21,044 bases of DNA from Candidatus Iainarchaeum sp. (GTDB lineage Archaea > Iainarchaeota > Iainarchaeia > Iainarchaeales > VGJJ01). The notes below the pieces were generated by a model. The model searched no databases. It worked only from the letters and a program-made list of their open reading frames with translations, and was not told where the DNA came from. Made by a program: the position numbers and the translations under genes. Location of the stretch: NCBI GenBank assembly GCA_043803765.1, contig JAZDJQ010000008.1:1-21044 (forward strand), in the 5' to 3' direction. Shown here one piece after another: positions 1,971 to 11,729 of this stretch (its first letter is position 1; every line of letters starts with the position of its first letter).

Positions 1971-3296
1971 ATGGCTCGTAAACAAACTCCCATGAAAGAA
2001 GAATCGGCCCCTCTTCACGTGGATGCCGAAGACCTTGCGGAATTGCAGATTCCTCTTTCTTTCAAGTCTACTTCGGATGTGGAAGTTCCCAAATCCCTTG
2101 TTGAACAGGTGATTGGTCAGGATAAGGCGGTTGAGATTATTCGGAAGGCCGCAGCCCAGAAGCGTAATGTTTTGTTGATTGGAGTTCCAGGCATTGGGAA
2201 AAGTATGCTGGCTCAGGCGATGGCCGAGATTCTTCCTGTTTCCCGTTTGTACGATGTTTTAGTCTACCCCAATAATGAAGACCAAAATAATCCCCGTGTC
2301 CGAGTGGTGCATGCGGGTGAAGGGAAGCATCTTATTCATTCCACTCGTCTTGAGGCGCAGAAGGCAGAAGATAACATGCGTCTTCTTGGATTGGTTTTCC
2401 CGTTAGGGTGGTTTCTTCTTTCATATATCATTTGGTCTATTGGTTGGATGCCCGATGTAGTGTATGCCGCTACTCTTATTCTGGGGGGTATTCTCATTTT
2501 TGGTTTTGCTATTGGTTCCCAAGTGAATCGTCCTACGGTGAAGCAGACTCCCAAATTGTTAGTGGATAATTATGCACGGAAGACGGCTCCATTCGCTGAA
2601 GCAACCGGTGCAAGAGCGGGGGCATTGCTTGGTGATGTGAGACATGACCCTCTTCAGAGTGGGGGTTTGGGAACGCCCGCTCATTTGCGTGTGGAGCCCG
2701 GCCTCATTCATCGTTCGAGCGGTGGTGTGTTGTTTTTGGATGAGATTGCCACGCTCTCCATGAAGTCCCAGCAGGAACTCTTAACGGCGATGCAGGAAAA
2801 AAAATACTCCATTACGGGTCAGAGTGAAATGTCGAGTGGTGCGATGACGCGTACCGAGCCCGTTCCTTGCTTTCCTTCTGGAACTATGATTGAAACGGAA
2901 AATGGTCCTGTTGCCATTGAGCAGTTAGTGGATGATCTGTTTTCCAATGCTCAGGAAATGGGTTCAGTAAAAAAAGAGGGAAATGTCGATGTGTTGGATT
3001 TGAATATTGATAGAATGGTGTGGGTACCAACCAATAAGAACGTGGTTCTCGATCGACTGGAAAGGGTTTATCGTCGTCCTTATACTGGAAAATTACTGAA
3101 GATTACCCTGGATGATGGAACTATTCTTTTGGCGACCCCCGAGCACCCCATCCAAACGCCAAATGGCTTTGTTAAAGCGCAAGAGTTGAAAGTAAATCAG
3201 TTGGTTGAAACCATGGATAGCATTATACTTAGCCGAGAAGATATAATTGGGACACCTATTTTGGAAAAGAAGAGGTTTTCAAGATGCCTGACTTAA
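1971..3296 (+). CDS. lonB: LonB ATP-dependent protease, N-terminal part (AAA+ Walker A/B, two TM helices) fused to N-terminal intein half
   Basis: QVIGQD, Walker A GVPGIGKS, two hydrophobic helices, [20 protein letters not shown], Walker B VLFLDE and [11 protein letters not shown]. Intein block A (CFPSGTMI) begins at residue 300. Confidence 0.93.
2868..3293 (+). mobile_element. Intein N-terminal half (IntN, 142 aa, Hint domain, no homing endonuclease)
   Basis: Starts at Cys (TGC 2868) after extein EPVP. Block [21 protein letters not shown], block [20 protein letters not shown] (TxxH), then [14 protein letters not shown]. Ends at TAA 3294-3296. Confidence 0.92.
3272..3276 (+). promoter_or_regulatory. 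Putative Shine-Dalgarno (GAGGT) for the lonB C-terminal ORF
   Basis: GAGGT is 7 nt upstream of ATG 3284. A similar AAGAGGT precedes the SPFH ATG (5839), and GGAGG precedes the PAC2 ATG (18590). Confidence 0.55.
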
Positions 3297-3403
3297 CAGC
3301 TAAAAAAATTATGGCCATTGAGGGAATAGACTATGCTGGGAACGTCTATAATCTCAAGACAAATTATGGCACTTATTTAGCTAATGGAGTCGCTGTTCAT
3401 AAT
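3284..3403 (+). mobile_element. Intein C-terminal half (IntC, 40 aa)
   Basis: [40 protein letters not shown] contains block F (VYNL) and block G ending His-Asn. It is followed by +1 Cys (TGT 3404) of extein CDFVLVAAG. Confidence 0.92.
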
Positions 3404-4483
3404 TGTGATTTTGTTTTAGTCGCCGCAGGCGGTTATAAGGATTTAGAAAATGTTCATCCTGCGTTGCGTTCGCGTATTCGCGGATACGGTTATGAAGTGT
3501 ACATGAACACGGAAATGGATGATACTCCGGATAATAGGAAAAAGATTGTTCAGTTTGTTGCGCAGGAAGTAGTAAAAGATGGGAAGATTCCTCATTTTTC
3601 TAAGAGTGCAGTGGAAGTGATTTTGTTTGAGGCCAAGCGCCGTGCGGGTAGAAAAGAAAAACTCACTCTAAAGTTGCGTGATTTAGGTGGATTAGTTCGT
3701 GCTGCGGGGGATTTAGCAAAAGAGAAAGGCCACTCTCTTGTTCTTGCCGATGATGTGTATGAAGCACGCATATCGGCTCGTACATTAGAACAGCAGATGA
3801 TGACGAAAGCGCTTGAGCAGAAAAAAGAATATGAAGTGTACAAGTCAACCGGTTTTGCCATAGGGAGAGTGAACGGTCTTGCCGTATCCGGTGACGGGGA
3901 CGCAGGTCTTATTCTCCCTATTGAAGCGGAGATTGCTCCCGCGCAGAGCAGTGCGGAAGGTCGTCTTATTGCTACTGGAAAGTTAGGTGATATTGCGAAA
4001 GAGGCAGTGCAAAATGTTTCAGCATTGATTAAGAAACTCTCTGGGAAGGATATTTCAAAACACGATGTGCATATTCAGTTCCTTCAAACCTATGAAGGGG
4101 TGGAAGGTGATTCTGCCTCGGTAAGTGTGGCCACCGCCGTTATTTCGGCATTGGAAGGTATTCCCGTTAAGCAAAATCTTGCCATGACCGGCTCATTGAG
4201 TGTACGTGGAGAGGTGTTGCCTGTTGGCGGTGTTACCAGTAAAGTGTATGCTGCCGTAAAAGCGGGTTTCTCTGAAGTTATTGTTCCAAAAGCCAATCTT
4301 GCCGATATCGTATTATCCAAAAAAGAGTTGAATGGAATTAAGGTTATTCCTGTTTCCACACTCAAGGAAGTATTGGACCATTCTCTCGTTCGTGGAAAGA
4401 AAACGGATTCTTTCCTTAAGAGTTTGGGAAAGCTGGTTGAGTTTAATCTTGGTCATATTATTGGTGAAAAAACACTGCGATAA
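3284..4483 (+). CDS. lonB: LonB protease, C-terminal part (intein C half, rest of AAA+ module, Ser-Lys protease domain)
   Basis: [36 protein letters not shown], catalytic Ser in [27 protein letters not shown] (catalytic Lys) and VIVPKAN. Confidence 0.95.
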
Positions 4484-9634: not shown

Positions 9635-10384
9635 ATGATGGAATTGGTGATTGAGCGCGCAGAAGTATTGAAGCGTAGTGTGGATGCGATTGCCGTGCTG
9701 ATTGATGAGGCCGAGTTCGAGGTCTCAAGTAAGGGTCTTTCTCTCAAAGCAACAGATCCTTCCCAGATTTCGATGGTTGATTTTGAGTTTGAAAAATCCG
9801 CGTTTAAGAAATTTCATGTGGATAACACGTTGCGTATCGGGTTGGATTTAGAATACCTCAATCAAGTCATGTCTCGTTCTAAACCAAATGATGAGGTCAT
9901 GTTAAAGTTGGATGATGATTCTTCTAAACTTATGATTACGTTCAGGGGAACATCCACCCGCACGTTCTCCGTTCCCTTAATCGATATTTCTTCTGGGGAG
10001 CTTCCCAATCCCAAGATTGAGTTTGATGCGATGGTGAAAGTGAAAGCAGGGGTGTTGCAGGACGCGTTGAAGGATGCAGGGCTGCTTTCGACGCATCTCA
10101 CGCTTGGGGCAAAGATGGATTCTTTTTTTGTGAAGGCTGTTTCTTCTAAAGGGGAATTGATGAATGAAACTTCCAAAGGGAGTGATTCTCTTCCCGATTT
10201 GAGCGTGAAGAAGGATTGTTCTTCCATGTTTCCGTTGGATTATTTGAGTGATATGCTCAAGGCCGCGGGCGGTGACACGGACGTATTAGTCAAACTCAAG
10301 GAAAACGCTCCCGTTGAAATTAATTACAAGATTGGCGATGCCAAGATGCGTTACTTTCTTGCTCCGCGCATTGAGAGTGCGTAA
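9635..10384 (+). CDS. pcn: PCNA sliding clamp, paralog 1 (canonical)
   Basis: LIDEAEFEV...GLSLKATDPSQISMVD, IGLDL, interdomain loop PLIDISSGELPNPKIEF, and YFLAPRIE C-terminus. Confidence 0.96.
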   Translation: MMELVIERAEVLKRSVDAIAVLIDEAEFEVSSKGLSLKATDPSQISMVDFEFEKSAFKKFHVDNTLRIGLDLEYLNQVMSRSKPNDEVMLKLDDDSSKLMITFRGTSTRTFSVPLIDISSGELPNPKIEFDAMVKVKAGVLQDALKDAGLLSTHLTLGAKMDSFFVKAVSSKGELMNETSKGSDSLPDLSVKKDCSSMFPLDYLSDMLKAAGGDTDVLVKLKENAPVEINYKIGDAKMRYFLAPRIESA

Positions 10385-10398
10385 TCATTTCATTTTTC

Positions 10399-10959
10399 TC
10401 ACTTTGGGCGTTTGATCCACGCAATGCTCACTACCAATCCGGCTATCATGTCCACGAGAAAGTCTTGCATCGTGTTAGTTAAACCCCCTTGGAAGTCCGT
10501 TCCCCGCAGAAAGTCAGATGAAAACTCTCCTAACTCCCATACCGCTCCTAGTCCCAAGCTGAATAGTATCATTCCCACTACAATCAACAAGGGAGGGGCT
10601 TCTTTCAATAATTGCGGGTAGGCTTTTTGCATTAATACGAGTGCGCTTACTGCAAGGAATACGCTTGTCGTGTAATGCGTGGTAATGTCCCATCCGGGTA
10701 TGGTATGATAAAAGTCGAATCCCAATCCAAGGAGGTTATTGAACACGAGTAATAATGAAAAAAGAGCATCCATCCATTGCCCCGTGTTTCCCAAAAAGTG
10801 TTTGCATACATAATATGCGATTCCGCTTGCTCCTAAACTCATGAGGAGTATTCCCACCATTTCCCATTTTCCATTGAGTGCAAAATAGAGTATTCCTGCT
10901 CCCAGCAGGGCGCGTAACCCCCATCCGAGTGCATGTCCTTGTTTTTCCACCTGTTTCAC
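10399..10959 (-). CDS. Membrane protein, DUF2238/VanZ-like
   Basis: Several TM helices with WDITTH, GAVWELGEF..D and TMQD motifs. GTG start. Confidence 0.7.
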   Translation of the reverse strand: MKQVEKQGHALGWGLRALLGAGILYFALNGKWEMVGILLMSLGASGIAYYVCKHFLGNTGQWMDALFSLLLVFNNLLGLGFDFYHTIPGWDITTHYTTSVFLAVSALVLMQKAYPQLLKEAPPLLIVVGMILFSLGLGAVWELGEFSSDFLRGTDFQGGLTNTMQDFLVDMIAGLVVSIAWIKRPK

Positions 10960-11000
10960 CCTCTTTTCTTTTAACGTTCAGCCTGCCTATAATAGTTTGT

Positions 11001-11729
11001 ATGATGGAAACGCAGGACATTTCTTCCTTCAAGCGTACGATTGATGCGATTGCTTCTTTCATTTCAGAGGGGAATTTCCGCTTCTCCGATAAAGGGATTA
11101 GTTTGCGTGCCGTTGACCCTTCTCAAATCGTATTAGTGGATTGTTTTATTGAAAAGAGTGCTTTTCAGAAATACGAGTTGGAGCCAAACTATATTGGGTT
11201 GGATGTGGTAGAATTGTCGCGCATGCTGGCGCGTTCGTTAAACAACGACAAACTAGTTTTAGATGTGGATGATAGTGAGCTTCATCTCAAACTGGAGGGG
11301 GATTTTTCTCGTTCTTTCCACTTGCCTCTTATCGATGTTTCCGAACCCGATAAAGAACTCAGGCTTCCTTCGCAGAATTTTGATACGCATGTGGAGATAA
11401 ATGCTCGTCTCTTTAAGGAAGCATTGAAAGATGCTCTTATTTTTGGTAGCACAGTCGTGTTGAAAGTGAAAGATTCTCATTTTGAGATGGAGGCGCGTGG
11501 CAGTCCGGGTATGCTCAAAACGGTATCAACTCAATCCAAACTTATTTCAATCAACAAGGGAACGAATGCCGTGTCAAAGTATTCTCTTAATTTTCTTTCA
11601 AATATTGTAAAGGAAGCGGACAATGATTCCACTATTTCGCTTGAGTTTAAGACGGATTCCCCGATGCGCATCACCTATCCAATAGGAAAGACCAAAATGC
11701 AGTACTACCTCGCGCATATGATATTGTAG
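11001..11729 (+). CDS. pcn: PCNA sliding clamp, paralog 2 (divergent)
   Basis: FKRTIDAIASFISEGNFRFSDKGISLRAVDPSQIVLVD, IGLDV, LPLIDV, SKYSLNFL, DSPMRITY and YYLAH. Start at ATG 11001 with TTTTAA at 10969-10974. Confidence 0.93.
   Translation: MMETQDISSFKRTIDAIASFISEGNFRFSDKGISLRAVDPSQIVLVDCFIEKSAFQKYELEPNYIGLDVVELSRMLARSLNNDKLVLDVDDSELHLKLEGDFSRSFHLPLIDVSEPDKELRLPSQNFDTHVEINARLFKEALKDALIFGSTVVLKVKDSHFEMEARGSPGMLKTVSTQSKLISINKGTNAVSKYSLNFLSNIVKEADNDSTISLEFKTDSPMRITYPIGKTKMQYYLAHMIL

Follow-up and report, generated by a model that had tools for sequence, protein, structure and literature searches.

Is a gene that breaks off in the middle of an intein an artefact of assembly, a gene in decay, or one of a pair of working half-genes whose products are rejoined by protein trans-splicing? 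The question is raised by lonB, the gene for a membrane-anchored AAA+ protease, in a 21,044-nucleotide stretch of DNA from Candidatus Iainarchaeum sp. (contig JAZDJQ010000008.1 of assembly GCA_043803765.1, contig C8 in our numbering; this whole stretch, at its full length, is called the window below, and the genome from which it comes is G000). In the window lonB consists of two plus-strand open reading frames (ORFs), 1971..3296 (441 aa) and 3284..4483 (399 aa), which differ in frame and overlap over 13 nt, and the break falls inside a class-1 intein at the LonB site EPVP/CDF (here and below, the slash marks the point of insertion). An original prediction, made from the letters of the window, had read this arrangement as a naturally split intein, in which an N-terminal intein part (IntN) closes the first ORF and a C-terminal part (IntC) opens the second, so that the flanking parts of LonB (the N- and C-exteins) would be joined in trans. 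The same break is found in all ten genomes in which we identified this intein and at one metagenomic locus, and we consider it probable that the window lonB holds a genuine natural split intein, splicing itself being what the conserved gene anatomy would predict. The main residual doubt is whether the copy in the window, which derives from a larger form by deletion, would still splice.

Anatomy of the split lonB gene

The two ORFs together make up one LonB. The NCBIfam LonB model TIGR00764 matches the first ORF at aa 29-300 (model positions 2-267) and the second at aa 40-380 (positions 266-605); the model positions meet at 266/267, and the two extein parts therefore abut exactly. The pieces score 335.3 and 504.6 bits and jointly cover positions 2-605 of 608, and neither by itself attains the model's cut-off of 516.6 bits. 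On the second ORF, Pfam finds Lon_C (7.4e-35) and also LonB_AAA-LID. Relatives that are intein-free, or that are interrupted at other sites, read continuously across the EPVP/CDF site (T[ED]P[VI]..), in keeping with the earlier claim that removal of the intein restores an intact LonB, and no stops or frameshifts occur elsewhere across the 2.5 kb of the window lonB.

What lies between the exteins is recognisably an intein in two parts. The intein N-terminal model TIGR01445 is matched at 39.0 bits (cut-off 24.5) by the 142 residues that follow TEPVP in the first ORF, and the C-terminal model TIGR01443 at 17.4 bits (cut-off 15.6) by the opening 40 residues of the second. Within the window IntN, the N-terminal core of the Hint domain (Hint-N) extends to about residue 118-128, and profile matches in the PDB include the MJ0781 intein (2.3e-11) as well as PI-PkoII. 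The layout, overlap and frame difference of the ORFs are as originally described, and so are the positions of Cys1 (2868), the TPEH of block B, the GAGGT followed by 7 nt and an ATG, the His-Asn pair, Cys+1, and the Walker and Ser-Lys motifs (Table 1). The GAGGT resembles a Shine-Dalgarno (SD) sequence and is complementary to the 3' end of the window genome's own 16S rRNA (..GGATCACCTCCT).

Conservation of the break across relatives

No sequencing run, of DNA or RNA, is listed for the locus, and the reality of the break was tested by comparison of genomes. A scan with the LonB model covered 40 relatives and then the order (196 genomes), with ten genomes followed up individually; among the matches listed, LonB is in most relatives an uninterrupted gene of ~640-680 aa, and in a minority it is broken at model position 266/267. 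A census of the phylum, in which profile A3 (IntC plus 8 extein residues) was compared with 215 genomes, gave full-length matches in exactly ten of them (E <= 2.4e-29), the next match, at 2.4e-12, belonging to other inteins. These matches lie in open frames of 402-433 aa, apart from one of 190 aa at a contig end, and none of them lies in a long LonB frame. Together the ten span seven GTDB families, with intein identity down to about 40%. An eleventh case, the metagenome locus L066, is also split at EPVP/CDF and has, at the second LonB site of the same gene, an intein that is contiguous and in frame, which serves as a control for assembly quality.

The loci of the ten genomes share a plan and differ in its execution. 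In 10/10 the N part and the C part occupy different frames, the stop of the N-terminal ORF (N-ORF) overlaps or abuts the ATG of IntC, an SD-like GAGG or GGTG stands a few bases 5' of that ATG, and the ATG itself is at the identical position, which makes IntC exactly 40 aa long. The original prediction had proposed a look at related genomes for this break and for an SD and ATG kept with it, and the ten genomes bear that expectation out, the break itself recurring in L066. The junctions read ATGnnTRA in five genomes (an 8-nt overlap, with the C-terminal ORF, or C-ORF, in frame +1 relative to the N-ORF) and TAATG or TGATG in four (frame -1), and the window alone has a 13-nt overlap, against 1-8 nt in its relatives; with the window counted, the C-ORF is shifted by +1 in half of the ten genomes and by -1 in the rest. 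There are at least four distinct stop/start geometries and two relative frames among ten genomes, and junctions so varied make it very unlikely that the break stems from a sequencing indel or from one conserved signal for frameshifting. Judged by this comparison, the break is genuine and very unlikely to be a product of assembly.

Searches for an unbroken counterpart agree with this picture within their scope. As a further control for assembly quality, the six relatives with long LonB frames (6/6) have contiguous inteins, each within a single frame, at other positions of LonB and leave the EPVP/CDF site uninterrupted. A word-based search of longer proteins for a contiguous intein at EPVP/CDF returned only the 811-aa N-ORF of G006, a genome of the same genus as the window genome, and a hidden Markov model (HMM) profile search of 1.84 billion representatives, with 1163 matches at E <= 0.001, gave no contiguous intein at the site in the 16 of the best 150 matches that were read. 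Four full-length EPVP/CDF matches (P0004-P0007) all end directly after an endonuclease, and P0008, P0009 and P0036 are shorter fragments that run into it. The word-based searches are of low sensitivity, and it is the HMM search and the 215-genome census that carry the argument. A further apparent break, in G194 (L048, G194:C108), proved to be an assembly artefact and no intein, the scaffold being joined there through a run of Ns, with the PVPCDF region present in two copies that differ slightly; it was dropped from the counts.

Evidence on the function of the two halves

The residues on which class-1 splicing chemistry depends are kept throughout the family. Cys1, the Thr and His of block B, the His-Asn pair that closes IntC, and Cys+1 are invariant in 10/10 genomes, so that the intactness originally claimed for them in the window extends to the other nine, and in the IntC alignment A3 the residues M1, VYN, H39 and N40 do not vary. 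The intein parts have evolved under purifying selection: between G000 and G006 the ratio of nonsynonymous to synonymous substitution rates (dN/dS, NG86) is 0.16 for IntN, 0.07 for IntC and 0.04-0.08 for the exteins, and these G000-G006 values alone are used as evidence, many pairs being saturated (dS not computable). For the nuclease carried by the relatives (see below), other pairs give 0.09-0.20.

A structure prediction for the complex of the window IntN (plus 5 extein residues) with IntC (plus 8), run on our own alignments, reached a score of 0.80 in its best run, against 0.00 for the best of 3 controls; at that score the calibration has 58/80 solved complexes and 2/110 mismatched pairs, counts that are only rough for runs on own alignments. 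At least 89% of contacts agree between runs, with a predicted local distance difference test (pLDDT) value of at least 74 for the partner, and the predicted interface takes in all 40 residues of IntC and IntN to about residue 118, leaving outside it a rewritten IntN tail (the neo-tail described below).

Several considerations weigh against a working split intein in the window. The dN/dS ratio averages over all the time since the divergence from G006, is blind to recent loss, and is drawn from comparisons in which dS is often near or at saturation. The score of the complex expresses likeness to solved split-intein structures (e.g., 4qfq, Npu DnaE), and the pair may pass for that alone. Net charge of IntC ranges from -2 to +1 in the ten genomes and is thus neutral throughout the family, as had been pointed out for the window (3 Lys, 3 acidic residues, net charge 0); electrostatic steering of the kind described for DnaE and gp41-1 is not evident in these sequences. 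The window IntN is the sole endonuclease-less form found, its last 13 residues are a neo-tail, and it may have lost function recently. The frame break and the deletion in the window are, moreover, those of the assembled sequence, and splicing there is a prediction from gene anatomy and established intein chemistry.

The endonuclease of the relatives and its deletion in the window

In the other nine genomes IntN has 507-519 residues, as against 142 in the window. A Hint-N core (..IIxTY) is followed there by an insert of ~385 residues with the motifs GALFGDGG and FFSSLLxCE, which continues into helix-turn-helix (HTH) segments and a tail, ..IPYTTVLYWK.., that reaches the stop; GALFGDGG and ..CE.. 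are invariant in 9/9 inserts. Pfam assigns HTH families to the insert and no LAGLIDADG family, and a PDB sequence search with profile A1 matched the Hint part only. An AlphaFold model of the relatives' IntN with its insert (pLDDT 83.4) has the fold of a homing endonuclease: a Foldseek search with the model of the insert found the TliVMA and PhoVMA inteins (E 6e-10 to 2e-7), I-DmoI (E 3e-5, template modelling score about 0.6) and PI-SceI. Because Pfam gives HTH families only, the LAGLIDADG assignment is made from the fold search and the motifs; on these grounds the insert is a LAGLIDADG/HTH homing endonuclease domain fused in frame to IntN, with a nuclease activity that its fold would predict. 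Many proteins of 300-400 aa (e.g., P0018-P0035) match only the nuclease part of the profile (~115-460), starting from their residue 2-3, and look like free-standing homologues of the intein nuclease.

The window copy has a gap in the place of this insert. When G000 is aligned by blastn with its congener G006, gene positions 1284 and 1285 (window 3254 and 3255) correspond to 1305 and 2418 of G006, and the sequences to either side are 78% identical. Since the length of the gap does not divide by three, the last 13 residues of IntN (130-142) form a frame-shifted neo-tail. The stretch 3255-3291 has 1 difference from G006 in 37 nt, for which the binomial probability is about 0.0015 at an average divergence of 22%; divergence as low as this fits constraint on the SD and start, a recent deletion, or both. 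A weak similarity, T(T/C)GGAAAA, at the two ends of the deletion may have mediated the loss. Word-based and HMM searches found no other endonuclease-less copy at EPVP/CDF, which leaves the window form unique among what was found; a word-based search with IntN near its own length returned the window copy and one 621-aa N-ORF that carries the nuclease. Judged by these alignments, the window copy is a secondary deletion derivative of an endonuclease-bearing split intein, reduced to a compact 142 + 40 aa. The original prediction had set the break at the former place of the endonuclease, and the break does lie between blocks B and F, but it has not simply replaced the endonuclease, which nine relatives keep, with the break just after it.

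A model for assembly of LonB from two half-genes

We propose that the two ORFs are co-transcribed as a two-gene operon. The second ORF starts, with its own SD, 10 nt before the stop of the first, which suggests translational coupling. A scan for promoters and terminators with sigma-70-type signals gave fewer sites than shuffled sequences, this type of signal being uninformative for an archaeon. From the first ORF would come a membrane-anchored N-extein of 299 aa, containing Walker A and B, that runs on into the 142-aa IntN, and from the second the 40-aa IntC followed by a 359-aa C-extein, which comprises what remains of the AAA+ module together with the LID and the Ser-Lys protease. IntN and IntC would associate and fold into one Hint domain, in which an N-S acyl shift at Cys1 would be followed by passage of the acyl group to Cys+1, by cyclisation of Asn40 with the help of His39, and by an S-N shift that completes the ligation, yielding a LonB of 658 aa. 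The intein itself descends from a split family with an in-frame LAGLIDADG/HTH endonuclease on IntN and the break directly after it, from which an out-of-frame deletion of ~1.1 kb in G000 removed the endonuclease and left a minimal, presumably immobile split intein. That splicing might further act as a gate for protease activation is speculation.

Alternative readings

In two alternatives the intein would be made as part of one chain. If the break were an assembly or sequencing indel, the real gene would encode a contiguous mini-intein of ~180 aa, disguised by a 1-nt error in this metagenome-assembled genome. A shift of 1 nt would suffice, short homopolymers (AAAA, TTTT) lie within 3262-3280, and the genome is a 19-contig draft whose frame at this point is that of the assembly alone; but an error would hardly recur in 10/10 independent assemblies and a metagenome contig with differing junction sequences and frames, nor be accompanied by a conserved ATG and SD. 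The ancestral TGA, moreover, still stands in the third frame (3289-3291), the splicing regions of nine further intein loci in G000 are each in one frame, and no contiguous relative turned up in the databases searched. We regard an error as extremely improbable. The overlap of two ORFs one frame apart could also be a site of recoding, where a ribosomal frameshift would produce one cis-splicing precursor. This, too, is barely credible, for the relative frame is +1 in half the genomes and -1 in the other half, the overlap varies from 1 to 13 nt, no slippery sequence is shared, and every genome has an ATG with an SD-like motif at the same position of IntC.

Others accept the break and question the splicing. 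The deletion of the endonuclease may have harmed IntN, through the neo-tail or through the lost linker or domain, and have left halves that no longer splice and a lonB that is decaying or works poorly. The window form is unique among the relatives found, the deletion is not a multiple of 3 and rewrote the last 13 residues, and the near-identity of 3255-3291 to G006 could mean that it happened recently. Yet the insert alone was removed, the Hint-N core is kept to ..IIGT and aligns with all relatives, the neo-tail falls outside the predicted interface, and the rest of the 2.5-kb gene is free of stops and frameshifts, with its SD, ATG and catalytic residues intact. It is, besides, the sole LonB gene of the genome, in an order where LonB is near-universal, and endonuclease domains are dispensable for splicing according to the part of PMC11766414 available to us; recent inactivation seems unlikely. 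It is far less plausible that the intein halves serve as a dimerisation module for a LonB that stays in two non-covalently joined pieces. The tight IntN-IntC complex that is predicted would serve such a purpose equally well, and a fragmented enzyme joined by interaction domains is on record (PMC3045599, in the portion available); residues needed for the chemistry alone are nevertheless invariant in 10/10 genomes despite intein identity down to about 40%, and an unspliced 180-aa domain, placed in the AAA+ core immediately ahead of the strand CDFVLVAAG, would be likely to disrupt the ATPase. A natural split intein that joins the two parts of LonB is the reading that we retain.

Mobility, origin and the second LonB site

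The split intein has a patchy distribution, being present in 3/17 genomes of the genus and 10/215 of the phylum. The window exteins are about equally close to congeners with and without the intein: the C-extein is 89-90% identical to those of the intein-free congeners G003 and G013, 93% to that of G007 and 88% to that of G006, both of which bear the intein; G000 and G007 are 91% identical in their exteins and 57% in their inteins, G000 and G006 88% and 80%. The patchiness, the discord between intein and extein, measured by pairwise identities only, and the conserved nuclease suggest that the two ORFs are still spreading together as a single DNA cassette. We put forward, tentatively and short of real conviction, that the lonB element may document a stepwise origin of a minimal DnaE-like split intein without genome rearrangement. 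A mobile intein would have become split, as a protein, directly behind the LAGLIDADG endonuclease nested in it; the DNA cassette would have stayed contiguous, able to home as a unit in the manner of a 'mobile split intein'; and the window genome would then have deleted the nuclease, leaving a fixed split intein of 142 + 40 aa.

A second intein site in LonB, HDPLQ/SGGLGTP, is uninterrupted in the window and in G006. Elsewhere its intein occurs, with a homologous nuclease, in three states. It is contiguous in P0011, P0032, P0037 and L066; split, with the nuclease fused to IntN and the ORFs overlapping, in a complete Asgard genome labelled Candidatus Heimdallarchaeum aukensis (L056 2296-5798, 7-nt overlap) and in P0013, P0016 and P0025; and 'fractured', the halves flanking a free-standing nuclease ORF, in G001 (L058:1856-3046, 99.6% hhalign probability to the nuclease profile) and in L067. 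In G018 the ORF between the site-2 halves has no relation to the endonuclease. Of the ten genomes with the split site-1 intein, eight also have a split site-2 intein, which leaves their LonB in three pieces (Table 1), the middle ORF opening with the site-2 IntC (..GHVYNVTTETGNLF..VHN/SGGLG); such a LonB would therefore need two trans-splicing pairs that do not cross-react (are orthogonal).

Three observations on individual loci may be added. The site-2 IntC of G049 (L038) ends in Cys-Asn (..VLVCN/SGGLG) rather than His-Asn, the other seven keeping the penultimate His. G018 (L037 803-3268) has a third LonB intein, contiguous and with a LAGLIDADG-like insert, within Walker A (GLPGTGK/C...SHN/SMLAQA), which brings its total to three. 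A public source names the N-half of G006 (P0003, 811 aa, made up of N-extein, IntN and nuclease) a 'sigma 54-interacting transcriptional regulator'.

Genomic context

The window genome is archaeal, as is its 16S, and amounts to 1.02 Mb in 19 contigs at 93% completeness. By the TIGR00764 model its LonB is single-copy, and LonB is present in 190/196 genomes of the order and in 55/55 of the high-quality ones. A distant match to the Lon protease domain (E 1e-12) at G000:C12:48675-49016 (L003) lies within an open frame of 822 aa; a similar ORF of ~800 aa is found in most relatives, scores below the LonB model cut-off and is no LonB paralogue. About ten further intein loci are detected with the Pfam Intein_splicing model, which makes this an intein-rich small genome. 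In nine of them one open frame of 810-1304 aa contains both the N and the C splicing region or a single match to the whole domain, and the locus on C19 has a match to the N part only at the threshold used.

The neighbourhood of lonB in the window is that of an ordinary archaeal chromosome (Table 1). A tRNase Z-like ORF on the minus strand, 906-2018 in its longest reading (GTG at 2018), overlaps the lonB start by 48 nt, and its true start is probably further inside the ORF, the Pfam match beginning at residue 65. The plus strand also has a pair of closely spaced PCNA-like ORFs, 9635-10384 and 10878-11729, the second of which matches the PCNA N-terminal domain model only.

Table 1. Coordinates of the split lonB gene in the window, with its surroundings and related loci.
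Feature	Position	Strand	Basis or remark
N-extein of LonB (aa 1-299)	1971..2867	+	TIGR00764 match
Walker A GVPGIGKS	2181-2204	+	motif
Two hydrophobic helices (membrane hairpin)	2382-2447, 2457-2516	+	in N-extein
Second intein site HDPLQ/SGGLGTP, uninterrupted	2643-2678	+	in N-extein
Walker B VLFLDE	2727-2744	+	motif
IntN, 142 aa	2868..3293; stop TAA 3294-3296	+	TIGR01445, alignment of relatives
Cys1 codon TGC	2868-2870	+	motif
Block B TPEH	3135-3146	+	TxxH motif
Deletion scar	3254..3255	+	about 1112 nt (endonuclease) missing relative to same-genus G006
Remnant of ancestral IntN-endonuclease C-terminus	3256..3291	+	third frame, TGA at 3289-3291; matches end of G006 N-ORF
Shine-Dalgarno-like GAGGT	3272-3276	+	then 7 nt, then ATG of second ORF at 3284
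IntC, 40 aa (MPDLTAKK...GVAVHN), blocks F and G	3284..3403	+	TIGR01443
Penultimate His and terminal Asn of IntC	3398-3403	+	VAVHN/C reads 3395-3406
C-extein of LonB, 359 aa plus stop	3404..4483	+	Cys+1 at 3404-3406; rest of AAA+ module, LID, S16 protease domain
Protease Ser motif GDSAS	4106-4120	+	
Lys motif GGVTSK	4226-4243	+	
Neighbours of lonB: tRNase Z, DUF373, SPFH/Band 7, two PCNA-like, primase large and small subunits, P-type ATPase	in the window		ordinary archaeal housekeeping set
Other intein loci of G000	contigs C1, C4, C5, C9, C12, C13, C16 (two), C18, C19		loci L082-L087
Three-piece LonB loci in relatives	L035 (G007), L036 (G026), L037 (G018), L038 (G049), L039 (G134), L040 (G188), L041 (G184), L042 (G052)		

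Significance

The novelty here is the split form of an intein in Lon; an intein in Lon is itself already known. Contiguous LonB inteins are on record, ten in Euryarchaeota being tabulated in PMC4760082 (Table 2). We found no description of a split Lon or LonB intein, or of a split intein with its endonuclease fused to IntN, in a literature search of incomplete coverage, and a prior description is possible. If the reading holds, split inteins gain a new kind of host, the chromosomal housekeeping gene of a membrane-anchored AAA+ protease in a little-studied archaeal phylum; natural split inteins are few, and the hosts of those described in the available parts of PMC2677866 and PMC4760082 are replication, nucleotide-metabolism or phage genes. 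The architecture, with the endonuclease on IntN, the break after it and overlapping ORFs, was absent from the literature searched. The G006 type, with its nuclease, and the window type, without it, form a before-and-after pair that bears on how split inteins originate. As a candidate tool, the window intein is a compact pair of the Cys1/Cys+1 kind, its 40-aa IntC being neutral, and the second, apparently co-existing pair in the same protein of relatives suggests a built-in orthogonality. Split LonB genes are probably mis-annotated, missed or scored as absent in public records.

Comparison with known systems

Among known split inteins, DnaE (Ssp, Npu) provides the first term of comparison. Both are class-1 inteins with Cys1 and Cys+1, split between blocks B and F, with a short IntC (about 36-40 aa). 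All inteins found at the LonB EPVP/CDF site are split, which is also stated of all known inteins at the DnaE insertion point in the accessible part of PMC4760082. The LonB intein differs in its host, a membrane AAA+ protease instead of a replicative polymerase, in its longer IntN (142 aa) and in having relatives that still carry the endonuclease. The halves of the DnaE split intein are encoded at distant loci, whereas those of LonB are adjacent overlapping ORFs. The DnaE split intein combines a negative IntN with a positive IntC, and electrostatic steering is described for DnaE and gp41-1 split inteins (PMC2677866, as far as its text was available); the IntC of LonB is neutral.

Fractured genes such as gp41-1 share the close spacing of the halves. 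According to the available text of Dassa et al. 2009 (PMC2677866), the coding sequence upstream runs 6-69 bp past the start of the IntC gene in 15 of the loci described, a free-standing GIY-YIG or Vsr-like nuclease gene stands between the halves and often overlaps the downstream start, the loci being phage-like ones from marine metagenomes, and the model proposed there has the endonuclease element supply a stop and a Met codon. The LonB half-genes are likewise neighbours on one strand, with the upstream coding region overlapping the start of IntC. There is no free-standing endonuclease gene between them, however, either in the window, where the ORFs overlap, or in the nine relatives: the LAGLIDADG/HTH domain is fused to IntN in the relatives and absent from the window, and the host gene is on an archaeal chromosome.

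Another small-genome archaeon, Nanoarchaeum equitans, has a natural split intein in its Pol B, with halves that are far apart. Its chemistry reportedly involves an oxyester, to go by the title of a paper on it, and we know of no endonuclease-bearing relatives of this intein. Its host protein differs from LonB, the halves of which are adjacent.

The contiguous inteins of LonB, finally, interrupt the same host protein and are single-chain and cis-splicing, and none was found at EPVP/CDF here. The prevailing view, as given in the parts of PMC2677866 and PMC11766414 available, is that endonuclease invasion fragments contiguous inteins. In predicted fold, the IntN and insert of the LonB relatives resemble TliVMA, PhoVMA, PI-SceI and I-DmoI, with Hint and a two-motif LAGLIDADG nuclease; unlike in the contiguous VMA inteins, the LonB chain stops after the nuclease and HTH segments, and blocks F and G are carried by a second polypeptide.

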